NCBI GenBank assembly: GCA_964409365.1
Contig: CAYPCX010000004.1
Location: forward strand, 21,015-85,014
DNA: 64,000 bases
DNA from: an uncultured Planctomycetia bacterium
Lineage (GTDB): Bacteria > Omnitrophota > Gorgyraeia > Tantalellales > Tantalellaceae
Reading direction: 5' to 3'
The notes beneath the pieces are model-generated. The model did not search any database, was not told where the DNA came from, and saw only the letters and a list, made by a program, of their open reading frames with translations. Positions 10,728-54,630 of this stretch are shown here, in pieces. The number at the start of each line of letters is the position of its first letter. Positions within the stretch are counted from its first letter, which is position 1. A program made the position numbers and the translations under genes.

Positions 10728-10744
10728 AATTTGCCCTTGCCTAA

Positions 10745-10772
10745 ATCATGTGCTATGTTATAATCTTTTTTA
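10745..10772 (+). promoter_or_regulatory. sigma70-like promoter (TTGCCT-16-TATAAT) upstream of tRNA-Phe region
   Basis: ttgcct aaatcatgtgctatgt tataat read in sequence. Confidence 0.4.
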
Positions 10773-10776
10773 ACCG

Positions 10777-10970
10777 GCGCCACGGTAGCTCAGCAGGTTC
10801 CCCGAACCCTTTTAGGGTTCGGGATAAAAGCAACCGGGCAGTCTCATTTTCCCCGAACCCTTTCAGGGTTCGGGATAAATTCGGCCATACAACTTATGTT
10901 CGCTGGCGCTCCATAAGTTGTGGCCTCATTTAGAGCAGGGATTTGGCATATAGAGGACTTGGCATTGTGG
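10777..10970 (+). repeat. Pseudo-tRNA-Phe fragment (5' 22 nt of tRNA-Phe duplicated) interrupted by two 33-bp palindromic direct repeats and a third hairpin
   Basis: ggcgccacggtagctcagcaggt at 10777 is identical to the 5' end of the intact tRNA at 10970; tagagcaggg fragment at 10931; repeats ttccccgaaccctttNagggttcgggataaa at 10798 and 10849. Confidence 0.6.
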
Positions 10971-10971
10971 C

Positions 10972-11047
10972 GCCACGGTAGCTCAGCAGGTAGAGCAGGG
11001 GACTGAAAATCCCTGTGTCGGTGGTTCGATTCCGCCCCGTGGCACCA
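10972..11047 (+). tRNA. tRNA-Phe (GAA)
   Basis: cloverleaf by eye; near-identical to E. coli tRNA-Phe core (AGAGCAGGGGAcTGAAAATCCC...GGTTCGATTCC); CCA encoded. Confidence 0.9.
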
Positions 11048-11089: not shown

Positions 11090-11514
11090 TTAATTCGGTT
11101 CTTCATAGGGGGAAACGAGAGTTTCCCCCTCTTGACGGTCGCTTCGCGACCTGTCACCCCCTTCCCATAGGTTTTAAGGAATCATGCCTGCTTTCTGGAT
11201 CAAAGAAGAAGGGGGAAGTATATCCCCCTTCTTCTTTGGAATAATATTCCCCTAAATTTGTGCTTTACTTTATATTATTGCTGGATGGGACAGGCCCCCT
11301 CAAGTTGTCTCTAGGATCGCATGCCACGTGTCGGGACCTTAGCTCGCTATGCTGGCGCTGGGGCGGTTACCGCTCCTTGTCCATGGTATTGCAGGAACGA
11401 CGAGGCGGGATTTTGTTCTGTTTTAAGACAAGATACAATATGTTCGGGTTGAGGGCTAGATCACTCGAAGAAACTTGAAAAAAGCCGAAGAGCCTCGTGT
11501 TCCATCTGTAAACC

Positions 11515-11730
11515 ATACGTAACCAGTTCCCAGTAACCAGTTCCCAGTAACCAGTAACCAGTAACCAGTAACAAGGAAAAAGGAAAAAGGAAAAAGTATC
11601 AAGTGTTGAGTTGTGAGTTGTTAGTCATGAGTTGTACGACTCAATACTAAGAACTAAAAGCTAACAACTAATATCTTCCAGGCATCTACGTTCTTCTGTC
11701 CTCTGTCTTCTGACCTCTGTTTTCTGACAC
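11515..11730. repeat. Composite heptad-array element: (CCAGTAA/CCAGTTC)n-(AGGAAAA)3-120-bp core (IR-L 11596..11715)-(NNCTGNN)5
   Basis: 7-nt periodicity throughout; core is the reverse complement of 18411..18530 (about 94% identity by eye). Confidence 0.85.
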
Positions 11731-11791
11731 CTGCGACCTTTCATCCCCCTCAAGTTGTATCTGGAATAGCAAGCCAGTATACTTACAAGAG

Positions 11792-12547
11792 ATGAAAGGG
11801 CCTTATTTGCTGGTGATCGGTTTTGTGGCGGGGTTTGCGAGCGGCGCGTTCGGGATTGGCGGGGGAGTGGTCATGGTCCCGGCGCTGGTACTCATCTGCA
11901 GGTATGAGATCAAGAAAGCCATTGGTATATCCCTGGCGACGATAGTTCCCACTGCCCTTGTGGGGGCCCTCACGCATTACCTGATATGTAGCAGTAATAT
12001 CGAATTCCCGGTGGTCCTTCTGGTCTCTCCCGGCGCTATTGCCGGCGCCTGGGTCGGGGCCAGGCTGGGGAACAGGCTCAGCAGCAGGCTGCTGTCCGGG
12101 CTGTTCGCCCTGTTTCTGACGTTCGTGGGCCTGAAACTCATGGGTATAGTTAGATTACCGATCAGTGTGCTCTCGAGTACGGCTGTCCACCCCGGGCTGG
12201 TCCTCCTTGGTCTGGCCGCCGGGGTTTGCTCGGCCCTGTTAGGGATAGGAGGAGGCGTCGTGATGGTGCCCTTTCTGAACCTTTTGTTCGGCCTTGGGAT
12301 ACACGAGGCCATAGCGACATCGCTCACGATCGTCGTGCCGACCACTTTTGCCGGGGCCGTGTTCCATAGGAGGCTGAATAACCTGGATGCCGGGCCCTTG
12401 AAATACCTGGTGCCGGCCGCTTTTCTTGGGGTCATCCTGGGAGCCGTTACGGCCAATTGTCTGTCGCAAGAGGTTTTAAAGGTCGCTTTCGGGGTCCTCA
12501 TGGTCCTGTGTTCTGTTAAGCTTTTTCTTGAAAAAAAACACCTTTGA
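11792..12547 (+). CDS. TauE/SafE (DUF81) sulfite/anion exporter family membrane protein
   Basis: two internal repeats each with GxGGGxxxxP motif (FGIGGGVVMVPAL; GIGGGVVMVPFL). Confidence 0.85.
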   Translation: MKGPYLLVIGFVAGFASGAFGIGGGVVMVPALVLICRYEIKKAIGISLATIVPTALVGALTHYLICSSNIEFPVVLLVSPGAIAGAWVGARLGNRLSSRLLSGLFALFLTFVGLKLMGIVRLPISVLSSTAVHPGLVLLGLAAGVCSALLGIGGGVVMVPFLNLLFGLGIHEAIATSLTIVVPTTFAGAVFHRRLNNLDAGPLKYLVPAAFLGVILGAVTANCLSQEVLKVAFGVLMVLCSVKLFLEKKHL

Positions 12548-12573
12548 TTATACAATCTATCGCATGTAGCGGA

Positions 12574-12649
12574 GCCAGCGTAGCTCAGTTGGCAGAGCAA
12601 GGCATTCGTAATGCCTAGGTCGGTGGTTCGAATCCACTCGCTGGCTCCA
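12574..12649 (+). tRNA. tRNA-Thr (CGT)
   Basis: cloverleaf; anticodon loop ATTCGTAAT; closely resembles E. coli tRNA-Thr(CGU); CCA encoded. Confidence 0.85.
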
Positions 12650-12668
12650 CAGTTTTACCATTCCTGAC

Positions 12669-13928
12669 ATGGCTCGTTTTCGAGACGTCCTTTTTAAAAG
12701 GAACTTCTTTTCCCTGTGGTCCGGCCAGATCATATCCGAATTCGGTGACCGTTTGAACCAGATGGCATTGATCTCGCTTGTCTATTCAAAAAGCCCCGGA
12801 TCCGTCATGGCCATGGCCAATCTGCTTTTTTTCATCGTTATACCCGTGTTCGTCATAGGGCCGGTGGCGGGCGTGTATGTCGACAGATGGGACCGCAAAA
12901 GGGTCATGATCATATCCGATATAATCAGGGGACTCCTGGTGCTGGCCGTACCGGTCTTTGTGCGTCTTGACCTGATGTGGCCGGTGTACATAATAGTATT
13001 CCTTATCTTTTCGGCCACGAGATTTTTTCTTCCCTCCAAACTGGCGTTGATCCCGACGATAGTGGCAAAGGATGATCTGGTCGTGGCCAATTCGCTTTCC
13101 AACACCACCCGCATGATCGCCACCATTCTCGGTTTTGCCCTGGCCGGGTTCATAGTAAAGTGGATAGGGTACATGTGGGGTTTTTATCTGGACAGCATGA
13201 GTTATTTTATTTCGGCCGGTTTTATAGCGATCATTACCCCGAAAAGGAAACTCGTCAACGTGCGGGAAGAGATCCAGATGACGGGAGAGATAATATCAAG
13301 ATCCATCAGAAGGAACGTATGGGGCGAGATAGTCGAGGGGATCGGTCATATGATGGGAAAAAGCAAGATGAGGGTGGTTACCAGCTCCTTGTTCCTTTTG
13401 ATGGCCGGCGCCGGATCGATCTTCTGTATCATCATAGTCTTTATCCAGCAGGCGTTCGGGTCTATAACCGAGGATCTGGGTCTTCTCGGGGTGTTCCTTG
13501 GCGCGGGGCTTTTCCTGGGTACCATCGTTTACGGAAAGTATGGCCAGAAGATGTCGAAGATACGCGCGATATTCGTCTGTTTCGGCCTTAGCGGCGTTGC
13601 GATCTCGCTTTTCGCGCTTTATTCAAGCAGGGACCCTGTTTTTCTGGTAGGAGGGCTCTTGATCATGCTTGTCGGGGCGGCGGTCGCCCCCATATTGACC
13701 TGCACCAACGTTTTGATACATACCCTTGTACCCGACGAGGTAAGGGGACGCATATTCAGCTCGATGGAGGCGGTCATGCACCTTGCGTTTATCGTGTTCA
13801 TGTTCATGACGGCGTATCTTTCCAAGCACGTGTCAAACCTGACGATATTACTGGCCAGCGGAACGATGTTCATAATAATCGGTTTTACGGGACAGGCCTT
13901 TTTCTCGGGGGGAAGGGCCGGAGGCTAA
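12669..13928 (+). CDS. MFS transporter (12 TM)
   Basis: hydrophobicity pattern and MFS-type loop motif VDRWDRKRVM between TM2 and TM3. Confidence 0.8.
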   Translation: MARFRDVLFKRNFFSLWSGQIISEFGDRLNQMALISLVYSKSPGSVMAMANLLFFIVIPVFVIGPVAGVYVDRWDRKRVMIISDIIRGLLVLAVPVFVRLDLMWPVYIIVFLIFSATRFFLPSKLALIPTIVAKDDLVVANSLSNTTRMIATILGFALAGFIVKWIGYMWGFYLDSMSYFISAGFIAIITPKRKLVNVREEIQMTGEIISRSIRRNVWGEIVEGIGHMMGKSKMRVVTSSLFLLMAGAGSIFCIIIVFIQQAFGSITEDLGLLGVFLGAGLFLGTIVYGKYGQKMSKIRAIFVCFGLSGVAISLFALYSSRDPVFLVGGLLIMLVGAAVAPILTCTNVLIHTLVPDEVRGRIFSSMEAVMHLAFIVFMFMTAYLSKHVSNLTILLASGTMFIIIGFTGQAFFSGGRAGG

Positions 13929-14116
13929 GATCTGGCCACTTTCTGGCTTTTCTTTTTCAGCGGGCTGGGTGACGGCGACCAGCAAGAGTCATAGAAAGTG
14001 CAAAGAGAACAACAGATGTTCTCCTTGTTATGCTCGCCCCGGTACCATTTGGTCTCACAGGTCCAGTAATATTGGCATTTTTCGCAGCAGTTCAGCTTTT
14101 TACGTCTTCCGGCCAT
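13925..14116 (-). CDS. Hypothetical small cysteine-rich protein (63 aa, 8 Cys, 3 Trp)
   Basis: ORF only; weak RBS; CCEKCQYYWTCETKW...ICCSLCTFYDSC. Confidence 0.2.
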   Translation of the reverse strand: MAGRRKKLNCCEKCQYYWTCETKWYRGEHNKENICCSLCTFYDSCWSPSPSPLKKKSQKVARS

Positions 14117-14206
14117 GGTGGTTTAGTGAGGTAATGATCTAAGCGGTAATATTAAATATCGTGAATTAATTATATAACGAATATGCGTGTATTTCAATAA
14201 AAATAC

Positions 14207-14241
14207 CCCGACACCCGATACCTGAGGCCCGGCACCTGATG
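14207..14241. repeat. (CCYGANN)x5 heptad array immediately upstream of rnf promoter
   Basis: cccgaca cccgata cctgagg cccggca cctgatg. Confidence 0.8.
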
Positions 14242-14244
14242 TGA

Positions 14245-14272
14245 TTGACAAACCCATTCCAATATGTATAAT
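14245..14272 (+). promoter_or_regulatory. sigma70-like promoter TTGACA-16-TATAAT (TG-extended) for rnf operon
   Basis: consensus hexamers read in sequence, about 40 nt before rnfC ATG. Confidence 0.55.
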
Positions 14273-14313
14273 GGGAATTCACCCTGATTTCTGGCAGTTA
14301 ACGGCATAAAAAC

Positions 14314-15651
14314 ATGAAGATATTGACGTTTCCCGGGGGAGTACATCCCGAATATTTCAAGGATATCAGCATACGGGAGCCGCTTAGAGAAGCCCCCCTT
14401 CCGCGTGTCGCCGTAGTACCCCTTTCGCAGCATATAGGCGCGCCCAACCAACCCGTTGTGGCAAAGGGAGATACGGTCGAAGAAGGGCAGCTTTTGGCGA
14501 GGACCGACAGTTATGTCTCCAGTCCGGTTCATGCTCCTGTATTCGGGAAAGTAGCGGAGATAAAAAAGGCGTTCCACCCCTCATTAGGATATACTCCATG
14601 CGTGTTCATAGAACGTGACGGAACAAAAAAACCCAAAAAATACGCCGAGCAGGACGTAGAAAACCTTACTCCGCAAGACCTTGTAGAAAAGATCAAGGAT
14701 GCCGGCATCGTGGGTATGGGCGGCGCCGCGTTCCCCACTCATGTGAAGCTTAACGTCCCGGAAGGCAGGAAAATAGAGACCCTGGTGGTCAACGGCGCGG
14801 AATGCGAGCCGTATCTTACCTGTGACCACGTACTGATGACCCGTAAGACAGGGGAGATACTTAAGGGCATCGCTATCGTGATGAAGATACTCCAGCCGAA
14901 AAAGACCATTATCGCGGTAGAGGATAATAAAAAAGCGGCTATCTTCGCTTTCCAGAAACTTATAAAGGATTCCACACATAAGGCTATATCCCAGATAGAG
15001 ATAGCGTGTCTGAAGACAAAATATCCCCAGGGCGGGGAAAAGCAGCTGATAAAAGCGGTAGCGAACAGGGAAGTGCCCCCGGGGGGGTTGCCGCTTGACA
15101 TAGGGTTCCTGGTGCATAACGTGGGGACGATCAATGCCATATATGAAGCGGTTTACCTGAATAAGCCCCTCATAGAACGGGTGGTCACCATCTCGGGCGA
15201 CTGCATGAACAGGCCGGGGAATTATGTGATAAGAGTAGGCGCGACCATAAAGGATATCATCGAACAGTACGGCATAGAACTTTACAAAGAACCGAAAAAG
15301 ATAATCGTAGGCGGCCCCATGATGGGGTTCGCCCAGCCGCAGACGGAAGTCTCCGTGCTCAAAAGCACTTCCGGCGTGCTTTTCCTTTCAGAACAGCTTG
15401 CCGGGACCTGTGAAGAAGGGCAGTGCATAAGGTGCGCCAAGTGCGTCGACGTGTGTCCGGTCAATCTGATCCCTACGGATATCATGAGGAACGTGGATAA
15501 GGACAAGTGGGACGCGGTGGAAGAGCTGAACGCCGGTGACTGCATGGAATGCGGAGCGTGCGCTTATATCTGCCCGGCGCGGATACCGCTCGTCCATTAC
15601 ATCAAGGAAGGGAAGGCCGTGCTGGCCCGGAATAACAGGGGGAAAAAGTAG
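14314..15651 (+). CDS. rnfC: Rnf electron transport complex subunit C
   Basis: GMGGAAFPTHVKL NADH/FMN site; two 4Fe-4S CxxCxxCxxxCP motifs. Confidence 0.9.
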   Translation: MKILTFPGGVHPEYFKDISIREPLREAPLPRVAVVPLSQHIGAPNQPVVAKGDTVEEGQLLARTDSYVSSPVHAPVFGKVAEIKKAFHPSLGYTPCVFIERDGTKKPKKYAEQDVENLTPQDLVEKIKDAGIVGMGGAAFPTHVKLNVPEGRKIETLVVNGAECEPYLTCDHVLMTRKTGEILKGIAIVMKILQPKKTIIAVEDNKKAAIFAFQKLIKDSTHKAISQIEIACLKTKYPQGGEKQLIKAVANREVPPGGLPLDIGFLVHNVGTINAIYEAVYLNKPLIERVVTISGDCMNRPGNYVIRVGATIKDIIEQYGIELYKEPKKIIVGGPMMGFAQPQTEVSVLKSTSGVLFLSEQLAGTCEEGQCIRCAKCVDVCPVNLIPTDIMRNVDKDKWDAVEELNAGDCMECGACAYICPARIPLVHYIKEGKAVLARNNRGKK

Positions 15652-15654
15652 CCG

Positions 15655-16599
15655 ATGAACAAGCTGGCGTTGAGCGTTTCACCGCATATAGTTTCACCTA
15701 TGGACACGCGCTTTATGATGAAAGGCGTCGTCAAGGCGCTCATCCCGGCCATCATTGCCAGCTTGTATTTTTTCAGGTGGAAAGCAGCCGGCGTTATGCT
15801 GGTCTCGCTGGCGGGTTGTGTCATTACCGAATATCTGTTCCAGAAGCTTAGGAAGAGGAAGGTAAAGATAAACGATTTCAGCGCTGTGGTAACGGGTCTC
15901 TTGCTGGCGATGGTGCTTCCGCCGGCCATCCCGTTGTGGATGGCGTTCCTCGGAGGCGTTTTCGCCGTCGCTCTCGGGAAAGAGCTTTTCGGCGGCCTGG
16001 GACAGAACGTGTTCAATCCCGCGCTTCTGGCAAGGGCTTTTCTGATGGCGGCATTTCCCGTAGCACTTACTACGTGGACTCATCCCATAACGCTTGATGC
16101 CATGACCGGCGCCACGCCTCTCGGGGTCGCGAAATTCGACCACATAATGACGCCGTATCTTTCGCTTTTTATAGGCAACATTGGGGGCTCTATCGGTGAG
16201 ACGTCCGCGCTGGCCATACTTTTGGGGCTGGTGTATCTTTTATACAATAAGATAATCGACTACAGGATACCCGTGGCTTTTATCGGAACGGTCGCGCTCT
16301 TCGGGACGGTTCTTTACTTAATAGCCCCGCAAAAATATATGTCACCTCTTTTTTACGTACTGGCGGGCGGGCTTTTACTGGGAGCGGTATTCATGGCGAC
16401 CGACCCCGTGACGACTCCGGTCACGGCGAAAGGCCGCTGGATCTTCGGGATAGGCTGCGGGGTAATAACGATGCTCATCCGTCTGTGGGGAGGGCTTCCC
16501 GAGGGCGTGATGTATTCGATACTTTTCATGAACGCGTTCACCCCTCTTATAAACAGGATATCAAGGCCCGGAAGATTTGGAGAGACAAGTGGAAAATAG
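15655..16599 (+). CDS. rnfD: Rnf complex subunit D (NqrB/RnfD family)
   Basis: polytopic membrane protein; TGATPL FMN-attachment-type motif. Confidence 0.85.
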   Translation: MNKLALSVSPHIVSPMDTRFMMKGVVKALIPAIIASLYFFRWKAAGVMLVSLAGCVITEYLFQKLRKRKVKINDFSAVVTGLLLAMVLPPAIPLWMAFLGGVFAVALGKELFGGLGQNVFNPALLARAFLMAAFPVALTTWTHPITLDAMTGATPLGVAKFDHIMTPYLSLFIGNIGGSIGETSALAILLGLVYLLYNKIIDYRIPVAFIGTVALFGTVLYLIAPQKYMSPLFYVLAGGLLLGAVFMATDPVTTPVTAKGRWIFGIGCGVITMLIRLWGGLPEGVMYSILFMNAFTPLINRISRPGRFGETSGK

Positions 16600-17173
16600 T
16601 CCCCTCAGGCGCATATTCGGCAACACGGTCGTGAAGATGATAATCGCGCTGACTCTGGTAGGCGTCGTTTCGGGAGCGACGCTGGTAATGGTCTACAACG
16701 CGACGATAGATAAGATAAAATTCAACGTCAACCAGGCCCAGGACAGGGCCATCAGGGAGATCTTCAAGGATGCCGACAAGATAGAAGAGACGAAGGAAGA
16801 AGGCGTTTTCAAGGTCACCGACAAGGAAGGAAAACTTCTCGGGTACGCGTTCACCGCCGAAGGCAACGGATACCAGGGGATCATAAAGATGATAGCGGGC
16901 GTCGATCCGGAGTTCACGAAACTGAACGGTATGGAGGTCATCGAATCACAGGAAACACCCGGCCTGGGAGCGGAAATAGCCGGGACCCCGTTCCGCAGCC
17001 AGTTCGAGGGGCTTTCGATCACGCATCCCATAGAGTATGTAAAGAACCAGAAACCGGTCGAGCCGTACCAGATAGAGGCCATAACCGGGGCCACGATATC
17101 TTCCCGGGCCGTGGTGAACATCCTGAACATAAGGATAGGCGAGATCAAGAAGGTTTTGAGAGGCGAAGGATGA
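16577..17173 (+). CDS. rnfG: Rnf complex subunit G (FMN-binding)
   Basis: single N-terminal TM; ITGATISS covalent-FMN motif. Confidence 0.85.
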   Translation: MERQVENSPLRRIFGNTVVKMIIALTLVGVVSGATLVMVYNATIDKIKFNVNQAQDRAIREIFKDADKIEETKEEGVFKVTDKEGKLLGYAFTAEGNGYQGIIKMIAGVDPEFTKLNGMEVIESQETPGLGAEIAGTPFRSQFEGLSITHPIEYVKNQKPVEPYQIEAITGATISSRAVVNILNIRIGEIKKVLRGEG

Positions 17174-17781
17174 TAAAAGATCTCATTAAAGGCCTGTGGC
17201 GGGAAAACCCCGTGTTCGTCCAGGTGCTGGGCATGTGCCCCACGCTGGCCGTGACTACAAAAGCCCTTTTCGGGTTTTCGATGGGGATGGCCACGACCTT
17301 TGTAGTGGTGTCTTCCGGCGTGGTCATCTCGGCCATCAGGAGGTTCGTTCCGGAGCAGGTCCGCATACCGATGTTCACGGTCATCATAGCTACGTTCGTT
17401 ACCGCGGCCGACTATTTTCTTAAGGCTAATTTTTACGAGATAAGCAAAGCCCTGGGTCCGTACGTACCGCTCATAGTCGTGAACTGTGTCATACTCGGAC
17501 GGGCGGAAGCGTTCGCTTCCAAGCACAACGTGTGGAGGTCCTTTCTGGACGCGCTGGGCATGGGTATAGGTTTTACCTGCGCGCTGATAGTTCTGGGAGC
17601 GGTAAGGGAACTTCTGGGTTCCGGCACGGTCTTCGGCTACAATGTTATGTGGGAAGGGTTCACGAAATGGGTCGTGATGGTCCTTCCGGCGGGCGCTTTT
17701 ATAACGCTTGGCCTTCTGGTAGGGATCTTCAACGTGATAGATAATAAGGTCAAGGCAAGAGGGGAGGGCAGGCAGAAATGA
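17170..17781 (+). CDS. rnfE: Rnf complex subunit E
   Basis: RnfA/RnfE/NqrDE family 6-TM protein; position in operon. Confidence 0.85.
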   Translation: MIKDLIKGLWRENPVFVQVLGMCPTLAVTTKALFGFSMGMATTFVVVSSGVVISAIRRFVPEQVRIPMFTVIIATFVTAADYFLKANFYEISKALGPYVPLIVVNCVILGRAEAFASKHNVWRSFLDALGMGIGFTCALIVLGAVRELLGSGTVFGYNVMWEGFTKWVVMVLPAGAFITLGLLVGIFNVIDNKVKARGEGRQK

Positions 17782-18368
17782 AGATCATAAATGATCTTAT
17801 CCTTATATTCCTGGCTGCCGTCATCACGAACAACTTCGTGCTGACGTACTTTCTGGGCATATGTCCCTTTATAGGCGTATCGAACAAGATAGACAGCGCG
17901 ATAGGGCTCGGTATGGCCACGACGTTCGTAATGACCATGGCCGCGACGGTCACGTGGATCATATATCATTACATACTTGTTCCGTTCAACCTGGAGTTTT
18001 TGCAGTACGTAACGTTCATCATAGTTATAGCGAGTTTCGTGCAGTTCGTGGAGATGTTTATAAAGAAGGTCTCTCCGCCTCTTTATAAGGCGTTAGGTAT
18101 TTTCCTTCCGCTTATCACCACGAACTGCGCAATTCTGGGTCTTACGCTTTTCATGGTGCTTAAAGATTACGAGTTCCTCGAGTCGGTCATCTTCGGTTTC
18201 GGCGCGGGTGTGGGTTTTACGCTGGCCCTTGTTCTCATGGCCGGGATACGCGAAGAACTCGAGTTCGCCGACATCCCGGGACCCCTTAAAGGGTCGGGCA
18301 TCACCCTGATACTGGCGGGGATGCTTGCCCTGGCGTTCATGGGTTTCGGCGGTATTATAAGCAGGTGA
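17778..18368 (+). CDS. rnfA: Rnf complex subunit A
   Basis: RnfA/NqrE family; position in operon. Confidence 0.85.
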   Translation: MKIINDLILIFLAAVITNNFVLTYFLGICPFIGVSNKIDSAIGLGMATTFVMTMAATVTWIIYHYILVPFNLEFLQYVTFIIVIASFVQFVEMFIKKVSPPLYKALGIFLPLITTNCAILGLTLFMVLKDYEFLESVIFGFGAGVGFTLALVLMAGIREELEFADIPGPLKGSGITLILAGMLALAFMGFGGIISR

Positions 18369-18410
18369 TCCGTTGCGTGAGGATCGAGAGTTTAGATGTC
18401 AGGTCTTAGG

Positions 18411-18572
18411 GGTCAGAAGACAGAGGACAGAAGGACGTAGATGTCTGGAGGATATTAGTTGTTAGCTTTTAGTTCTTAGTTTTTAGTCGTACAACTCATG
18501 ACTAACAACTTACAACTCAACACTTGATACTGGTAACTGGTAACTGGTAACTGGTAACTGGTAACTGGTAAC
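18411..18572. repeat. IR-R core (18411..18530, reverse complement of 11596..11715) followed by (CTGGTAA)x6
   Basis: manual reverse-complement comparison; few mismatches. Confidence 0.85.
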
Positions 18573-18591
18573 AGAACACACAATATGAACC

Positions 18592-19401
18592 ATGGATAAT
18601 CTGATGATAACGGCGATATTGAGCATGGCGGGACTGGCGATAGCGTTCGCGGCGGTCCTTGCGTTCGCCAACACGAAATTAAGGGTAGAGGAAGACCCGA
18701 GGGTGGACGTCATCAACCATCTTCTACCAGGGATCAATTGCGGCGCGTGCGGGTACCTCAGCTGCCACGACCTTGCGGAGCACGTGGTAAGGGAGGGGGA
18801 GGATCCCGCGAAATGCCGTGTAGTGGACGAGGAGACCAGGGAAAAACTTCTTGAGCTGACGGGCAGAGAGGGCGAAACGACTTATCCCTACATACCGCTT
18901 GTGCGGTGCGCGGCCGAATGGGAGCACAAGAAGAAAGAAGGAGTGGAGTATAAAGGCATCAAAACGTGCGCGGCGGCTAACCTCGCCTTCGGCGGGGGCA
19001 TGGACTGTGAATACGGCTGCATGGGGTTCGGCGACTGTGCCGAAGTATGTCCTTTCGACGCGCTCCATATGGAAAATGGCCTTCCCCGGCTCGACCAGGA
19101 GAAATGCACCGGTTGCGGAAAATGCGTCGAGGCATGCCCGCGCAACATCATAGTCCTTCAGGAGAAAAGGTTCGAGAAATTGTTTTACGTCGCTTGCAGC
19201 ACGCATGACGGGGCCTTAAGGGTCAGAGAGATCTGCAAGGTCGGCTGTATAGCCTGCGGGATATGCGAGAAACTTTCCCAGGAAGGGTTTTTCAAGGTAA
19301 CGGACAACCTCTCAAGGGCGGATTACTCCAAACAGGCCGACCCCGAAAAGGTAAGGCCCATAGCCGCCAAATGTCCGACGAAGGTGATAAAGGAAATTTA
19401 G
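18592..19401 (+). CDS. rnfB: Rnf complex subunit B (polyferredoxin)
   Basis: N-terminal TM; CGACGYLSC cluster; CTGCGKCVEACP and additional 4Fe-4S motifs. Confidence 0.85.
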   Translation: MDNLMITAILSMAGLAIAFAAVLAFANTKLRVEEDPRVDVINHLLPGINCGACGYLSCHDLAEHVVREGEDPAKCRVVDEETREKLLELTGREGETTYPYIPLVRCAAEWEHKKKEGVEYKGIKTCAAANLAFGGGMDCEYGCMGFGDCAEVCPFDALHMENGLPRLDQEKCTGCGKCVEACPRNIIVLQEKRFEKLFYVACSTHDGALRVREICKVGCIACGICEKLSQEGFFKVTDNLSRADYSKQADPEKVRPIAAKCPTKVIKEI

Positions 19402-19437
19402 GAAACAGGTGGCAGGAAACAGGTAACAGGGAAAACA

Positions 19438-23344: not shown

Positions 23345-26300
23345 ATGAATAATTACTTTAACATACATAGATTGTGGTTCAAAACAGTTGCGACAGGCGT
23401 AGTATGCCTGTTCCTTCTGAATAATTTCTCCTTCGCGCTGGAACCGACCACGGGTCAAAGATCCTGTCATACCCTTTCTCCGCAGTCACGATTCCCATTC
23501 GTGATCAAAGATAGAGTAAATGAAACGGAACTCACGCAGAGGCTCCAGAATGACGCGGGGCTGATATACGTGAGCCTGCTGATAGGAAAGGTCCTGGCTG
23601 CCAACGGTAGCGTGATCAGCGACAGAGGCTTAAGAACGCTGATCGAAAGACACATTCTGCATATAGAACCTGTAAGTTTTGATTGGGAAAACCTCAGGAA
23701 AGAAGGGAAGACCTTTTGTCTTCCTTATACCGAAAAGGGCGGCAACCGGACAAGGATCCTTCGTTATTATTTACCGGAGGATAAACCTGAAGAGGCAATA
23801 GGGAAACGGTCCATACCTCTCGGAACGGGAAATGCCAGGGTTATTTTAGAGGATACCCGGGTAGACGTATCGGAATCTGTGTTTATTTTTAACGTTGGCA
23901 CCGATGATATAAAGGGAGGAACAGGAAGAGAACTGTACGAGACAAATAGAATAGCTCAGGGAATTTATGATAGAGCGGCAGAGGCCCTGGGGTGCGATGT
24001 TTCCATGTTGTTTTTAGAGGAAAAGAACAGGGGTATAACCGAACGGTGGGCTGTCGGCAACATTTTGTATGGGGTAGCCCTGTATGCGGCATTTTCCGGC
24101 AGAATGGAGACGAATGATGCTCCGATCGCGCTGGCCGGTAACAGTATGGGTGAGATAGGAGCCCTTATCGTGAGCGGCGCCGTGTCTTTGGAGGACGGTG
24201 TCAGGCTTGCCCGGTTTTGTGGACATTTTTTTGAGACGGTCGTAGATAAGGTCGATTATGGCGTCGTCATACTGGAAGGCATTGAGAGTGATGCTATCAA
24301 GGGTTTTCTTGATCCCGGAAAGGTCGAGCTGTTCCAGGATGTTTCTCCCAGCAGCATTTCCCTGGCTGTAAGCAGGGATGTCGACCATGAAGAACTGGTC
24401 AACCGGTTAAAAGAGGCCGGAGCGAGAAGAGCGCAATATTTCGAAAAGCCTTTGGTCAAAGGGTCTCATGTAAGCTGGTACAGTCGTTATGGGCAGGGCC
24501 TTGTAGATCAGATCAGGGAAATGAAGATAAGCGATCCGGAGATCCCCGTTATCTCGCCCGCGACAGGGGAGATCCTCACGACCGCTGACCAGGTAAGGGA
24601 AGATATCCAGACGCAGTTTTTTAGGCCGATCGCATGGCGCGGTGTGGTAGATAAGGCCGTGGAAAGCGGCGCAAGATCGATGCTGGCCTTCGGGCCGGGA
24701 TGGCGGATCATAAAAAGAACAGAATCGATGGGTTCCGGTATTGAGATTATCCCGGCGACGGATCTTGCGGAGCTTGAATCCTTGAAACATAAGGTCAGGG
24801 GGTTCGGTTCCGAGAATTTAAGGCCGGATATCGGTACTGTGGTGAAAGGGCAGGATGGGCATACTTATGAAATCAAAGAGATAATAACGACCGGGGGAAC
24901 AGCCATTATTTTCGGGGCCAGGGATATGGAAACGAGCAAGAACGTCGCGATAAAATTCCTGGATTTTTCTATTGTGCCGGAACCGGAAGAATTTATAAAG
25001 CTGTTCAAACGGGAAGTGGATGTTTTGAAAAAAGGGTTCACGTTCGCGCCTGGTTTTTATGACTGGAATATCGTCGATGATCCCAAAGGTTATGGTTGGA
25101 TAGCTATGGAAAAGCTCGAAGGCGTTGAATTGTGGAAATGGGCAGCGGATAAATATCAGGATCAGACGATAGGTGTGCAGGAGAAGGTGAGAGATATAGT
25201 AGAAATAGTGCAGAAAGTCCTCAACCATATGAGTGCCTTATATGAAAACGGCATTCAGTATCGCGAAGTGAACCGGAAAAATATTATCGTTACTCCGGAG
25301 AGCGAACCGAAGCTAGTAGATTTCGTCGGCGCGTGCGTTCCCGGGCATGACCCAATACCATTGAATAAACTTCCGTGCACCCCGAACTATTTACCGCCTG
25401 ATAGACACCGTGAAATAAAACTCAAAGGTCCGGGGGTCCTTGACGATGTGACAACTCCGCAGTACGACGTTTTTCAGATGGGCGTGTTGCTGTTCCACCT
25501 GGCTCGCATGACAGGCCCACCTGATGACGGTTCTTATTGGGATGTCTCATTCACATACGAGACATATACCCGGGAAAAGATCGAAGATATGTTGCCGCCT
25601 GCTTGGAAAAGGTTTGCCGGTGTTATTTTTAAAGCCACCGCTCGGGAGCTTGAAGACCGCTACGAGAGCGCGGAAGAAATGAAACGCGCCATTGAGGAGC
25701 AGGAAGATGCACCAGGTTCCGAAGGATTTGGTGATGGGACTCATGGCCCGGATTTCGGAAAATCAAACCGAAAAAAGTTCTGTTTAGTCGCAATGGGCGC
25801 GGTATCTCCCTGGGTGGTGCTGATTCTATTAGCTGGCATGGTCATATGTGATATGGTCTACGGCGTAATAAACCACGAAAGGTTCTACCAGGTGATCCTC
25901 AACAAACACCCGAAGCTTACCCTCGCGCTTAAAAACCTCTTCTACCGCCAGTACTTGCCTGATCTTATCTCAAAACCCCTCCAGAGGTGGGCTGTTTCAG
26001 CGCTGGGCCGTTTGATGGACAAGATAAAAGAATTCACCGATAAACTCCCGGGAATAAGATTTAGGGATCCAGTTGTTGTCATGGAGGCCGAACTTGCGGG
26101 GACGGGAGACAAAGTAATCAGTGACATCGGCTTCCAGGTGCCGATCGTATTCGAGATGTCCAAGTCCGGCAGAAAGGGCAGAGGAAGGGGATCCAATAAA
26201 AGAAGGAAACAGATGTCCAAACGGCCCCCGGCCGCAGAGGAGCCCAAACCATACGATGACCTGATCTCCTGCGCGGGATATGCTTTAAATAACCTGGTGA

Positions 26301-29300
26301 TCGTCAGGGAACAACCTGAGATGCTACAAGCGGCAAAAGATTTTTACGCTTATTTATCTGAAGCAGGGAAAGACATCTTGGACCAGTTGAATATAGATGA
26401 GAACAAACTACAGGATATAAGATCGATTTTGGAAGGAAGGGGTTTGTCTCCGGACATGGTCCGGTGTTTGAGGCAGGATGCGGAGATCATAACCGGCAGA
26501 ACGAAGGGTAAAGGTACGGTCAAAGCCTCCCCGAAAAGATTTTCGGACGATTATGAAATAGTCGAGGTCGCCGATGTAAAAACACTTGTTCCCGTTATTA
26601 TGTATGTTCAGGAAATGAAAGCGCGTGAAGTCACGGATGCGGAACTCTCATTATACGCGGTGACTGATGATGATTTGAGAAAAGGAGTTCGGATGCCGGA
26701 GAAATTACCGGCCGCAAAAGAGATGCTTTACAGGAAAGCGTTGAGAAACCTGAAAGATGTAAATTGGTACAAAAGGGGCTGGCAGGAAGTTCAGGGTTTA
26801 TCCCCGGCGAATAAACGTTTTCTGAAAGAAAAAGCGGAAGAGATATGCGGGGATAAACTTGAAAAGTGCTGGGGTTTTGTAGAAGGCATTTCAAGCGAGC
26901 AGGATTATGCCGAGAAACTAATGAGAACTGAGATTGCCACCGTGAACAGTATGCGTGATTTCACGGAGTTTATAATATTGTTGGCGTGTATTTACGGAGG
27001 CGAGCAGACGCATGATGAGATGCGCGTGGCCTTGGAAAATATAGAAAAAGAGCATGAAAATGCCGCCCTTCTCGGTGATGCGCCTGTTCTCGACAGACTT
27101 GACGAAGATGTATCGGTAAATGTAGGGACTTTCGCAAAGATCGCTTTTTCCTTTCTTGAACATGAAAAGGGCTTGGAAAGAGACAGTAAAGAGTACAGGG
27201 CGATACTGGATGCGGTACGGCGTATAAATTCCTCCGCTAAAGTGCAATGCCGGCCGGAATCGAGCGAGAGATGGATAAGGGACTTTTTGGCATGGATACA
27301 CGCGGGATTCAGGTATTATCTGATGCCGAAAGGCGGCGAGATATACGACGATCGGCATGGGCCGGGTGTGTTGCGTGAAGGCGGGGCCATTGTTCCGGGA
27401 AGGGCGGTAACACCCTTTACACTGGTATCCGGTGCCGTAAAAACTTCGGACGCCGAGCTTTTCTCCGCTGAGGCGGGGAAACTGGGAATATTTACTTATG
27501 TCCTTCCTCCCGGGTTTGTGACATGCCGGATATCTTCTACCGGAAGGAATATAATCCTTAAAACGGGGCACATTGATGTAGTCATGGGTGTTGTTCCGCC
27601 GGAGTTTACAAGCGATGGCAGAGCCAAACTCCTGATGGATCCGAGTTATCACAACCTGGTGAAAGACAACCCCGAATTTCTGCGTCTTTTGGAAGAACAG
27701 GGTTCTAATATGGATGTGGTCCTAATACATCCGGAAGAAACTTACCTTAACCTGGCCAATTTCAGCTCGCTCCTGGATGAAAATGGGCAGGTCAAACTGC
27801 TTTTTAATCACGACAAAGGCCTTACTTTGCCATATTTGAATTTGAAAACGGGTGTTCTTTTCCAGACGGATATGGAAATAACGGGAATGGCGGTTCTTAG
27901 GGGCCTGGTAAGGTGTATGACAAATATGCTTCCCGGGAGCTACGTAAAGGGAGGCGCCTCTACCAGCATCGTGATCCGTGATAGCGGTATGCCACCCGGT
28001 GTGGCGACAGGCCTTCATGCGTTAAGTAAGGACCCGGAACTGAAAAGGGTGTTGCAGGAGCTTTGGATAAATAGATTGACGATAACTGGGACTAAATTTC
28101 GTCCTATGTCCCTGGTCCATTATGATTCGTCAACCCGGAGGATTCTCGTCCAGTTGGGGAATGATCTTGTAAATGATCCCAGCGCCGCCTGCGATTATGT
28201 TATTAATTACTTAGAAGCAACCCGGCAGCGTCTGTGCCAGGATATGGGTATATCTGTCCAGGGGTTTGGTGATACCCGACAGATGGGTGGATCGGCCCCG
28301 GCTCCGGCCGGTATGTTCCCGTGGATGTGGCGCGTCTATGATCCGATAAAAAGAGGTCTTGAGAAGAGGGACTGGCCGGCGCGCCGGATCGCCGGTCTGA
28401 TAGGCGGCCTGGAAGAGCTGGGGATCGCGGGCCTGGTCATGAACGGGGCAGCTTTTGCGTTAAGTTATTTTTGCGGGATGCCTTTTATAACAGCTCTTCT
28501 GGTGACTTCAGCGGTCGCGGTGCCGTTTTTTCCGGCAGGACATATTAGAGGACGGTATTATATTCAAGGAGGGGGATTTGCCCCCGCTTTGCCTTCTAAT
28601 TTCTGGAAGGATATGGGCGTCCTTACAGTTCTTGGACTTACGACAAGATCCCTGCAGCTATTGCCTGTCGCAATGGTATGCGTGTTTAACCTTAATCCTG
28701 CCTTTACGCTGGTCGGCATCCCGCTTGCCGTTATCGCGCATGCTTATTATAACCATTCCGTAGCGCCCGAACGCAACCGCCCTCTCGGCATGCCATGGAA
28801 AGGTAAACCCCACAAGTGGACGCCGGAACGTATATCTGAAGAGCTTCGCATGATGTATTTTGACGGAGTGGATTCAAGAGGTGTGAAGTGCACACGTGAA
28901 GACCTTCGGATCGAAAAAATAAGAGACCATTATCAGGGTCTTGCTGTTGCGGTCCCGAGGACTTGGAAGGAAATGCTGAAGGAACAGGGAGTATCAGAGA
29001 ACAGCCGCCTTTATATTTACATGTCCGGGGAAGGCAGAAATCCCAGGGAAGGTATTAATAAGGCAGGATGGGAGTATTTCTGGGCGACGATCGGAGTGAA
29101 TTACGAAAGAGATATTGAAAAGAAACCGGGTGCTGCAGAAGGGGCTTATATACCGAACGCGACCGATAGCGGCATAGAACACCGTGATTTGAAAAAGTTC
29201 GTTCCGGAAGAAGATGAGCTGTTCGGTATTGTCAGGGAAATGTTGGGCGGGGAAGATCTCACTGAACACGAGATAGCTGATATCATCCTCAACGCGCCCG

Positions 29301-32040: not shown

Positions 32041-32077
32041 CAGGTCTCAGGTCACAGGTTTCAGGTAGCAGGTCACA
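32041..32077. repeat. (CAGGTNN)x5 heptad array just after giant ORF stop
   Basis: caggtct caggtca caggttt caggtag caggtca. Confidence 0.8.
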
Positions 32078-32142
32078 CAGCATAAAACCCTTGCGCATGA
32101 GTTCTATATTTGCTATAATTTGACACTCTGAACGAGATTTGA

Positions 32143-32217
32143 CGCGGGGTGGAGCAGAGGTAGCTCGTGAGGCTCATAACCTCAAGGTCGGCGGTTCGAT
32201 TCCGCCCCCCGCAACCA
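32143..32217 (+). tRNA. tRNA-Met (CAT), initiator-like (C1:A72 mismatch, close to E. coli tRNA-fMet)
   Basis: CGCGGGGTGGAGCAG...GCTCATAACC...GGTTCGATTCC...CCCCCGCAACCA. Confidence 0.85.
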
Positions 32218-32221
32218 ATAT

Positions 32222-32253
32222 AAAAACCCGGCTGATTTTTAGCCGGGTTTTTC
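32222..32253 (+). terminator. Rho-independent terminator (cccggct-N7-agccggg + T5), same stem as terminator at 11055
   Basis: read in sequence. Confidence 0.7.
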
Positions 32254-32262
32254 TTACCCCGG

Positions 32263-32300
32263 TACCTGAAACCCGACACCCGACACCTGATACCTAACCC
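32263..32300. repeat. (ACCYGAN)x5 heptad array upstream of purB promoter
   Basis: acctgaa acccgac acccgac acctgat acctaac. Confidence 0.8.
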
Positions 32301-37476: not shown

Positions 37477-37482
37477 TAGAAT

Positions 37483-37545
37483 GCAGAAGGCAGAGGACAG
37501 ATTGTTCATTTCTTTTATCTGTTTTCTGACTTCTGATTTCTGAAA
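37483..37545. repeat. Forward (CAGANGG)x3 and reverse-complement (TCTGNNN)x4 heptad arrays forming imperfect long hairpin between rpiB and glyA
   Basis: read in sequence. Confidence 0.7.
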
Positions 37546-38831: not shown

Positions 38832-38910
38832 AGAAGGATAAAGGATAAGGGAAAAAGGGTGAAGGGTAAAGGAAAAAGGATAAAGGAACAAAGAAAAAGG
38901 GAAAGAATAA
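38832..38910. repeat. (AAGGNNA)x11 heptad array spanning glyA-stop to dCMP-deaminase N-terminus
   Basis: aaggata aaggata agggaaa aagggtg aagggta aaggaaa ... Confidence 0.8.
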
Positions 38911-39353
38911 ACAGGCCGAGCTGGGATGATTATTTCATGAATATAGCCCGGCTTGTCGCGACACGATCGACCTGCCTGCGCAGACAGGTAGGCGCTGTTG
39001 TCGTCAAGGATAAGCAGATATTGGCCACCGGGTACAACGGCGCTCCTTCGGGGCTGACCCACTGCGACCAGGTCGGGTGCCTCAGGGAAGAGCTCGGGAT
39101 CCCTTCGGGCCAGCGGCACGAGCTTTGCCGCGCCTTGCACGCGGAGCAGAACGCCTTTTTGCAGGCGGCCAGGCACGGCGCCAGTCTTGCCGGCGGTACG
39201 CTGTACATAACGACGCAGCCCTGCAGTATCTGCGCGAAGATGCTGATAAATGTCGGCATAAAAAAGATCGTTATCGAGGGGGACTACCCCGATGACTTCG
39301 CCCTTCAATTCCTCAAGGAGTCCAAAATAGAAACGGTGGTGCTTGGGTCATGA
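38859..39353 (+). CDS. Deoxycytidylate (dCMP) deaminase, ComEB-type; start uncertain (GTG 38859 inside heptad array)
   Basis: RPSWDDYFM...RSTC N-terminus, HAEQNA and PCSICA zinc-binding motifs. Confidence 0.8.
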
Positions 39354-53574: not shown

Positions 53575-54510
53575 ATGGATAAACTGACGATTTTCAGCGG
53601 GAACGCCAATCCCGCCCTGGCGAGGAAGATATGCGAGAACATGGGCGTGGAACCGGGAGATATAGAAGTGGCGAGGTTCCGCGACGGTGAAACGCGGGTC
53701 AAGATAAGAGAGAACGTCAGAGGCAAGGATGTGTTCGTGGTACAGTCTACGTGCTTTCCCGCGAACGAGAACCTGATGGAACTGCTGATAATGCTGGATG
53801 CCATAAAACGCGCTTCCGCGCAGAGGATAACGGCTGTCCTGCCTTATTTCGGGTACGCCCGGCAGGACCGCAAGGACCAGCCGAGAGTGCCGATAACGGC
53901 AAAACTCGTGGCTAACCTGTTGAGCAGGGCGGGAGCGAACAGGATATTGACCATAGACCTCCATGCCGGTCAGATACAGGGCTTCTTCGACATGCCCATG
54001 GACCATCTGTACGCCGTGAGCATATTTCAGCAATACTTCGAGCGGAAAAAATTGAAGGACATAGTGATCGTTTCTCCGGATGTAGGAGGCATAAAGATGG
54101 CCAGGGCCTATGCTAAAAGGTTCAGGGCGGGGCTGGCTATCGTGGATAAACGCCGGATAAACGACGAAGCCGCCGAGGTCATGCATATAATGGGCGACGT
54201 GGAAGGGAAGAACGTGCTTCTGGTGGATGATATGGTGGCTACGGCGGGGAGCCTCGTGGAGGCCACCGGCGCGCTAAAGAAAAACGGCGCGAGAGATATC
54301 TACGCCGCGATAACGCACCCGGTGCTGTGCGGTCCGGCCCTGGAAAGATTGGGATCTTCCCAGGTAAAGGAACTGGTCGTGACTGATACTATACCGATGG
54401 ACAAGGATAAGTTCCTGAAGAACATAAAACAGCTTTCGGTGGCGGAGCTTCTGGCGGAGGCTATAAGAAGGATACACAACGAGGAATCCATAAGCGCCTT
54501 GTTTGAATAA
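53575..54510 (+). CDS. prs: Ribose-phosphate pyrophosphokinase
   Basis: canonical PRPP synthetase motifs (DLHAGQIQGFFD, VLLVDDMVATAGS). Confidence 0.95.
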   Translation: MDKLTIFSGNANPALARKICENMGVEPGDIEVARFRDGETRVKIRENVRGKDVFVVQSTCFPANENLMELLIMLDAIKRASAQRITAVLPYFGYARQDRKDQPRVPITAKLVANLLSRAGANRILTIDLHAGQIQGFFDMPMDHLYAVSIFQQYFERKKLKDIVIVSPDVGGIKMARAYAKRFRAGLAIVDKRRINDEAAEVMHIMGDVEGKNVLLVDDMVATAGSLVEATGALKKNGARDIYAAITHPVLCGPALERLGSSQVKELVVTDTIPMDKDKFLKNIKQLSVAELLAEAIRRIHNEESISALFE

Positions 54511-54630
54511 CAGAAGACAGAGGACAGAGAACAGAAGACAGATAACAGAAAACAGATCATAGTATCTTTTAACATCAAACACCTAATATCTGACTTCTGA
54601 ATTCTGACATCTGACGTCTGATTTCTGAAA
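54511..54630. repeat. (CAGANNA)x6 and inverted (TCTGANN)x6 heptad arrays between prs and rplY
   Basis: read in sequence; arrays are mutual reverse complements. Confidence 0.85.

Follow-up and report, generated by a model that had tools for sequence, protein, structure and literature searches.

The question posed by this 64,000-nt stretch of contig CAYPCX010000004.1 (positions 21,015 to 85,014; hereafter the window, whose positions on the + strand serve as coordinates unless stated otherwise) is why an inverted repeat of about 120 nt should bracket a 6.7-kb segment containing rnfCDGEA and leave rnfB just beyond it. The first-pass annotation of this DNA had offered two answers: recombination between the arms that inverts the segment and uncouples rnfB, as a hotspot or phase-variation device, or two copies of a composite repeat family resembling miniature inverted-repeat transposable elements (MITEs). 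We found that both arms are built from heptanucleotide units of the kind that occupy many other spacers of this genome, and we consider it probable that they are two paralogous copies of one composite module, of the type described as short tandemly repeated repetitive (STRR) sequences or long simple sequence repeats (LSSR), copied between spacers.

The inverted pair itself is clear-cut. Aligned with 18408-18530 in reverse complement, the stretch 11596-11718 matches at 116 of 123 positions (94%), with seven mismatches and no gaps, which bears out the pair of about 120 bp with some six to seven mismatches that had been paired up by hand. BLAST reports the core pair as 121 nt at 95% (E = 1e-51), and a repeat search widens the arms to 179 nt at 84% identity (11554-11732 and 18394-18572, with an interval of 6661 nt), the longest mismatch-free run common to both being 30 nt. 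The 123-nt core is present at only these two sites in the window, both by BLAST and in separate searches with two core sub-patterns. The elements of the pair are as follows:

11519..11735, + strand: the whole left-arm composite, 31 successive heptads in a single register
11596..11718, + strand: the left-arm core, 123 nt in common with the right arm at 94%
11602..11669, + strand: a weak central hairpin of the left-arm core, AGTTGTT.../...AACAACT around GAGTTGTACGACTC, 72% complementary
18394..18572, - strand: the whole right-arm composite, including a perfect (ACTGGTA)6.3 array at 18529-18572
18408..18530, - strand: the right-arm core, the reverse complement of the left-arm core with seven mismatches, situated in the rnfA-rnfB spacer

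The perfect 44-nt (ACTGGTA)6.3 array of the right arm stops 19 nt 5' of the rnfB ATG.

Both arms had been described as embedded in heptad arrays, and Tandem Repeats Finder (TRF) indeed recovers period-7 arrays throughout each. The relationship is closer than embedding: each arm is one unbroken single-register run of heptads and at the same time a degenerate palindrome, not a repeat that merely lies beside arrays. The units of the left arm follow the order (GTAACCA/GTTCCCA)8, (GGAAAAA)3, a diverse GTnnnnA series, a central turn, an nnCTnnn series and (TTCTGTC/CTCTGTC)n. Units 1-17 conform to GTnnnnA (G at position 1 in 17/17 and A at position 7 in 16/17), and the last 14 to nnCTnnn (C at position 3 in 13/14 and T at position 4 in 12/14); since the AGT of the first half is complementary to the ACT of the second, the left arm is a long degenerate palindromic heptad array centered near 11638. 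The outer flanks of the two arms, (GTAACCA/GTTCCCA)8 on the left and a perfect (GTTACCA)6 on the right, are set apart by a single, consistent base difference in each unit, which is a sign of within-array homogenization, and the (GGAAAAA)3 block is extra in the left arm relative to the right. Unlike canonical heptad modules, which fold significantly better than shuffled sequence (z = -3.4 to -6.5), the two cores fold no better than their shuffled counterparts (z = -1.0 for the left and -0.5 for the right), and the same is true of RNA folding of the whole spacers with their arms. Because of this folding at the shuffled level we dropped a structured-RNA reading, and Rfam likewise returned no family in either arm at gathering and E-value thresholds.

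Heptads are by no means confined to the arms. Self-matching positions in the window number 88 at lag 7 and 13 at lag 9, and there are none at lags 3-6, 8 and 10-12; a lag-7 signal is also displayed by the loci fetched from other genomes, with essentially nothing at lags 6 or 8. Period-7 arrays occupy at least 10 other junctions of same-strand genes in the window, which makes heptad arrays a genome-wide habit, and every one of them is intergenic once the + strand genes are correctly called. The sub-arrays of the arms share unit types with these other arrays, among which the 123-nt core does not recur. The individually located arrays and modules are:

1405: heptad array at the GT2/GH42 junction
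19400: heptad array at the rnfB/purN junction
32041..32295, + strand: complementary heptad arrays flanking tRNA-Met, (CAGGTnn)n at 32041-32074 (giant ORF/tRNA-Met junction) and (ACCTGnn)n at 32264-32295 (tRNA-Met/purB junction)
34696: heptad array at the purM/purD junction
37480..37545, + strand: palindromic heptad module (GCAGAAG..)/(TCTGAnT)n at the rpiB/glyA junction, z = -5.0
38834: heptad array at the glyA/dCMP deaminase junction
54510..54628, + strand: palindromic heptad module (ACAGAAG)n, loop, (TCTGACT)n at the prs/L25 junction, z = -3.4

The modules at 37480-37545 and 54510-54628 are clean hairpins of an array plus its complement. The complementary arrays around tRNA-Met also enclose its promoter and terminator, in a short-range analogue of the 6.7-kb inverted pair. 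Some arrays have a Shine-Dalgarno-like composition: the glyA/dCMP deaminase junction (38834-38911) holds about 11 such heptads (AAGGATA, AAGGAAA, AAGGGTA), and further + strand arrays rich in AGG or GGA are found at 19400-19430 and in the complement of 18414-18436.

How such modules behave over time can be read from related genomes. The closest RnfD and RnfB relatives are found in Omnitrophota metagenome-assembled genomes (RnfD of Ca. Tantalella remota at 74%; the named RnfB matches are to 'Candidatus Omnitrophota bacterium'), and, judging from these similarities, the host is likely to belong to an uncultured Omnitrophota-like lineage with Ca. Tantalella remota as its nearest named relative. 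The relatives' loci used for comparison were L086/L087/L088 (RnfB 72%), L004 (RnfD 68%), L005 (Ca. Tantalella remota), L085 (RnfB 78%) and L102. Their rnfA-rnfB spacers range from 27 nt and essentially array-free in L086, and 33 nt and array-free in L004, through 136 nt with heptads in L005, to 335 nt with a palindromic heptad module in L085, which features a second module between rnfE and rnfA and more at most junctions. The comparison of L102 with L085 is the most informative. Their RnfB proteins are at least 90% identical and their flanking coding DNA 89-94% identical, yet the rnfA-rnfB module of L102, (AAGCTAT)n ... (CTTATAG)n, is completely unlike that of L085. Its start instead matches the rnfE-rnfA spacer of L085 (28 nt, 96%), and the rnfE-rnfA hairpin common to both differs in length by exactly one 7-nt unit. 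Thus, the heptad modules of this clade change by slippage, by wholesale replacement and by copying between neighboring spacers. The rnfA-rnfB spacer of the window shows only a weak similarity to those of L005 and L085, which is not orientation-specific and amounts to shared unit types rather than demonstrable homology; we accordingly claim no orthology with these spacers and name neither arm as the parent copy.

The relatives also establish which way the bracketed segment originally faced. In L086/L087/L088 the order is GT87, tRNA-Phe, tRNA-Thr, a major facilitator superfamily (MFS) transporter, a small ORF, rnfCDGEA, rnfB, purN, eno, divIC, HPP, pfkB and a giant ORF, and L004 has tRNA-Thr, MFS and rnfCDGEAB. 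The window's own order of tRNA-Phe, tRNA-Thr, MFS, rnfCDGEA, rnfB, purN and eno is that of these relatives, which lack the repeat, so that the segment still faces in its ancestral direction. Against L086, in which tRNA-Phe and tRNA-Thr are neighbors on the same strand 130 nt apart, the left arm together with tauE constitutes an insertion of about 1.5 kb between the two tRNA genes; the nearest non-identical TauE homologue is 59% identical. In L085 tRNA-Phe (12-87) lies on the opposite strand to tRNA-Thr (966-1041), with an ORF for a 164-aa membrane protein between them. The opposed tRNA genes of L085, set against the co-oriented ones of L086, mark the tRNA-Phe/tRNA-Thr spacer as a recurrent site of insertion and rearrangement.

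From these patterns we posit the following history. Modules, typically an array followed by its complement, have widely colonized the co-directional junctions of the host, where they would lengthen and shorten via replication slippage and would at times be overwritten or copied from spacer to spacer. Ectopic gene conversion or template switching at arrays that stall and are prone to form hairpins is presumably responsible. A single copying event of the kind seen between L085 and L102 would have placed a module of about 180-215 nt, inverted, at two sites 6.7 kb apart, namely the rnfA-rnfB spacer and the insertion-prone tRNA-Phe/tRNA-Thr spacer just upstream of tauE. Any effect of the module would probably be modest and act in cis on the transcript, through its stability or through translational decoupling.

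Several points weigh against this account. The mechanism of copying is one that we infer from patterns in relatives, and any effect of the module on expression is likewise inferred. For sequence with an otherwise rapid turnover, 94% identity across 123 nt is a high value, and selection or continuing gene conversion, instead of mere recency, could lie behind it. The count of two copies covers 79 kb of this genome, and assembly breaks inside the arms (see below) could stem from further copies elsewhere in the genome or community, or from population variants. A more dynamic version of the same process, which we consider unlikely, is that the palindromic heptad modules of this lineage form an active copy-and-paste system, with hairpin-prone arrays repeatedly overwritten and duplicated between nearby spacers. 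Operons of the rnf type would then be remodeled by it, inverted copies would leave segments invertible at low frequency, and the assembly breaks in the arms would stem from additional copies or from recombinant molecules in the natural population.

The genes in and around the segment bear directly on whether the rnf operon is in any sense split. They comprise:

11792..12547, + strand: tauE/TSUP, directly downstream of the left arm
12574-12649: tRNA-Thr, inside the bracketed segment
12669-13928: MFS transporter, inside the bracketed segment
13925-14116, - strand: Cys-rich 63-aa ORF, between the MFS gene and rnfC
14245..14272, + strand: perfect sigma-70 consensus, TTGACA-16-TATAAT, upstream of rnfC, the likely operon promoter
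14314-18368, + strand: rnfC/D/G/E/A, inside the bracketed segment
17778..18368, + strand: rnfA (PF02508, 5e-64), the last gene within the segment
18592..19401, + strand: rnfB (PF04060 and Fer4 families), just beyond the right arm and co-oriented with rnfCDGEA

The segment thus carries tauE, tRNA-Thr, the MFS gene, the Cys-rich ORF and rnfCDGEA, exactly as the first-pass annotation had it, and the gap of 223 nt that it reported between rnfA (stop at 18368) and rnfB (ATG at 18592) is also correct. Its description of that gap as unusual holds only in part. Among 40 fetched loci with adjacent rnfA and rnfB, the gap is below 50 nt in 26 and lies between 96 and 324 nt in about ten (these distances being approximate projections), so that 223 nt is long for this junction without being unique. 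The further statement that the repeat splits rnfB from rnfCDGEA is overstated: because rnfB is co-oriented with the other genes, the spacer (18369-18591) yields neither a promoter nor a terminator consensus in a consensus scan, and relatives tolerate other modules at the same place, the operon does not appear to be functionally split. At the level of translation, rnfB here lacks the obvious Shine-Dalgarno sequence that its L086 ortholog has (GGAGAA). On the other side of the segment, a likely tauE promoter region, TTGTAT-17-TATACT at 11754-11782, was spotted by eye and fails the consensus scan, and none of the small ORFs around the left arm has a Pfam match.

Copy number and orientation were assessed beyond the window. 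The genome could be read contiguously over 79.3 kb (L104, the window and L100, the extensions being 7.4 kb to the left of the window and 7.9 kb to its right), within which the core occurs twice and no third copy was found. A central 20-mer of the core, TAGTCATGAGTTGTACGACT, has no match among public genome contigs or metagenome contigs, and a second, GAACTAAAAGCTAACAACTA, has 11 metagenome matches, all of them 20-32-nt matches of the array type and none with the core. The latter 20-mer occurs exactly in seven unrelated metagenomic contexts (L089-L099), in one of which (L097) it sits at the end of a (AACTTCGAACTAAG)6 array; this suggests that heptads of the (nACTAAn) type arise repeatedly in different organisms. 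A 110-kb Joint Genome Institute (JGI) contig from another sample (L103, JGI 3300029267) is 100% identical to the window over 1807-22547, through both arms and with every array length preserved, and shows the segment in the same orientation; three further JGI contigs were reported as similar. The GC skew is positive and unbroken throughout the segment and its flanks. Logan contigs from two Sequence Read Archive (SRA) runs (SRR6963311 and SRR14699969) are identical to the window and end at 11596, 18496 and 18543. The last of these breaks is due to the perfect 44-nt array, and at 11596 and 18496 no 30- or 31-mer is repeated within the window. The Logan contigs stop inside the arms, and their breaks proved uninformative as to orientation; the two arm-spanning assemblies, the window and L103, agree. 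Across 1-54 kb, Pfam detects no recombinase, integrase or transposase in the ORFs, the remaining ORFs scanned there being housekeeping or of no known function, and no RAYT (REP-associated tyrosine transposase, where REP stands for repetitive extragenic palindrome) or IS200-like ORF was found in the window.

Were RecA to recombine the inverted arms, the 6.7-kb segment would flip in part of the population, as a hotspot or phase-variable region, and the flipped form would part rnfB, purN, eno and the genes that follow from the rnfC promoter. A rare RecA-mediated inversion is physically possible: the arms are inverted, 123 nt long and 94% identical, and their longest perfect run, 30 nt, is close to the shortest length at which RecA-dependent exchange is efficient in E. 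coli, though the seven mismatches would lower recombination further. The contig breaks inside the arms in two SRA runs, with those at 11596 and 18496 lacking an explanation, speak for this possibility, as does the inverted tRNA-Phe of L085, which makes the left-arm spacer an earlier rearrangement breakpoint. However, all arm-spanning assemblies agree on one orientation, it is the ancestral one, and the GC skew is unbroken. No site-specific recombinase is detected nearby by Pfam, the arms enclose eight genes and a tRNA instead of a promoter or variable gene end, and the stranding of rnfB without a promoter looks deleterious rather than adaptive. With the ancestral gene order, the unbroken skew, the missing recombinase and the identical, independent 110-kb contig all against it, the proposed switch that uncouples rnfB is unsupported, and we regard inversion in the population as improbable. 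A mobile non-autonomous element of about 200 nt, akin to a MITE, to REPs and bacterial interspersed mosaic elements (BIMEs) or to palindrome-associated transposable elements (PATEs), and inserted twice by a transposase acting in trans, would account for two near-identical copies at unrelated intergenic sites, for the missing right-arm copy in the orthologous spacers of L086 and L004 and for the internal hairpin, and the assembly breaks could point to more copies elsewhere. We nonetheless give it little credence: terminal inverted repeats are missing, since GTAACCA... at one end and ...TTCTGAC at the other are not complementary; homology gives out within tandem arrays, which leaves no definable target-site duplication; the 79.3 kb hold two copies, with no full copy in the public genome and metagenome scans; and no transposase or RAYT-like gene was found in the window. 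Of the first-pass suggestion of a MITE-like composite repeat family, the composite repeat copies stand, and the likeness to MITEs falls with the lack of terminal inverted repeats and of a definable target-site duplication.

The positions of the arms could also suggest a shared cis-regulatory platform, in DNA or RNA, through which one factor co-regulates tauE and rnfB. About 60-75 nt separate the left arm from the start of tauE and 19 nt the right arm from that of rnfB, the latter gene lacks an obvious Shine-Dalgarno sequence where L086 has one, and an identity of 94% exceeds what is expected under rapid array turnover. Yet the arms are oppositely oriented with respect to their genes, so that their RNAs would be complementary and not identical, and the left arm, being situated 5' of the likely tauE promoter, is probably not part of the tauE transcript. 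As the arms, in addition, fold no better than shuffled sequence and are conserved in no relative examined, we deem such a platform very improbable.

Two paralogous copies of a heptanucleotide module, the explanation that we favor, also sit best beside previously described repeats. Among long simple repeats, heptanucleotide arrays are the most abundant class in many bacteria, with polymerase slippage as their presumed origin (Mrazek 2007, as summarized in PMC4679880). In filamentous cyanobacteria, a 7-bp STRR hairpin lies between hupS and hupL and is proposed to affect transcript stability or translational coupling (PMC2670836), and the rnfA-rnfB module resembles it in its position inside an operon. 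In common with STRR/LSSR sequences, the arrays of the window consist of intergenic 7-nt tandem units, with many unit sequences per genome, slippage, a hairpin tendency and a location within operons; period 7 is over-represented, the arrays are non-coding and unit number varies between L085 and L102. They differ in that the modules are typically an array plus its complement and that a composite module of about 25-31 units has been duplicated en bloc, inverted, 6.7 kb away. The TAACTGA direct repeats known from marine Beggiatoaceae, Cyanobacteria and Bacteroidetes (PMC4679880) likewise form heptamer arrays that closely precede start codons, in spacers often devoid of a canonical ribosome-binding site, and some units found here are related to them in sequence (AACTAAG, AACTAAA, GTAACCA). 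In contrast to them, the window has many unit families with none dominant, a palindromic rather than direct-only arrangement, and arrays that also follow stop codons and flank tRNA genes.

REPs and BIMEs are comparable as hairpin-forming intergenic mosaics that occur within operons in both orientations, are missing from the orthologous spacers of relatives and have a proposed role in mRNA stability. REPs are, however, imperfect palindromes of 20-40 nt with a family consensus, hundreds of copies and a link to RAYT, whereas the repeats here are assembled from 7-nt tandem units, with two copies of the core in 79 kb and no RAYT in evidence; nor does any recurring palindromic consensus emerge in the window, the core being unique to its two sites. 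With the Hin/Gin/Cin systems, fimS and shufflons the pair shares the bracketing of a DNA segment by inverted repeats. Those systems use recombinase sites of about 9-40 bp, an adjacent serine or tyrosine recombinase and a segment with a promoter or alternative gene ends, none of which is present here, where the segment holds complete genes with their own promoters rather than orientation-dependent promoters or gene ends. The composites resemble MITEs in being about 200 nt long, non-coding, intergenic and richer in AT than their surroundings, and differ in lacking terminal inverted repeats, a definable target-site duplication and, within the 79.3 kb and the public scans, evidence of a multi-copy family. 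The pair is thus most probably a case of STRR/LSSR-type heptanucleotide repeats, neither a switch nor a MITE, in an Omnitrophota-like lineage for which we found no earlier report of heptad repeats in the literature.

Additional features of the neighborhood deserve mention. A 32-nt direct repeat (11295-11326 and 11745-11776; 84%, CCCCCTCAAGTTGT...) brackets the left arm together with about 190 nt of other sequence, and the likely tauE promoter region overlaps with its second copy; the repeat may be due to chance or be an insertion footprint. Further upstream, the first 23 nt of tRNA-Phe are duplicated at 10776-10798, right after a promoter-like site at 10737-10764, and are followed by about 170 nt that contain two 31-nt hairpin repeats (10798-10828 and 10849-10879, 97% identical); the intact tRNA-Phe lies at 10972-11047, whereas in L086 the promoter directly precedes this gene. 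The arrangement at 10737-11047 suggests that the tRNA-Phe gene has received an insertion or been partially duplicated. The Cys-rich ORF is conserved in L086 (5543-5737; 63% identity, E = 7e-30) and L085 (1768-1962) and belongs to no Pfam family; it is a real small gene with no function assigned, always found beside rnfC. Downstream of pfkB, the giant ORF (23345-32038) encodes 2897 aa, for which Logan gene calls give acyltransferase and protein-kinase Pfam domains, and its counterpart in L086 exceeds 3700 aa. An ORF of this size fits the very long proteins that have been described from Omnitrophota (bioRxiv 10.64898/2026.06.07.730766).

As a switch, the inverted pair would have meant drastic on/off control of Rnf, an energy-conserving ferredoxin:NAD+ oxidoreductase, but the evidence points elsewhere: the pair looks like a by-product of a repeat-rich genome, not a genetic switch that splits rnf. 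In practical terms, short-read assemblies break at heptad modules, which can also be mistaken for mobile elements or switches. The value that remains is descriptive and opens no long-standing question. It lies in an Omnitrophota-like lineage whose operon spacers harbor dense, fast-evolving palindromic heptanucleotide modules, which close relatives replace and copy between neighboring spacers. This copying pattern is of modest interest, and the lineage offers a natural system in which to study how heptad arrays spread.

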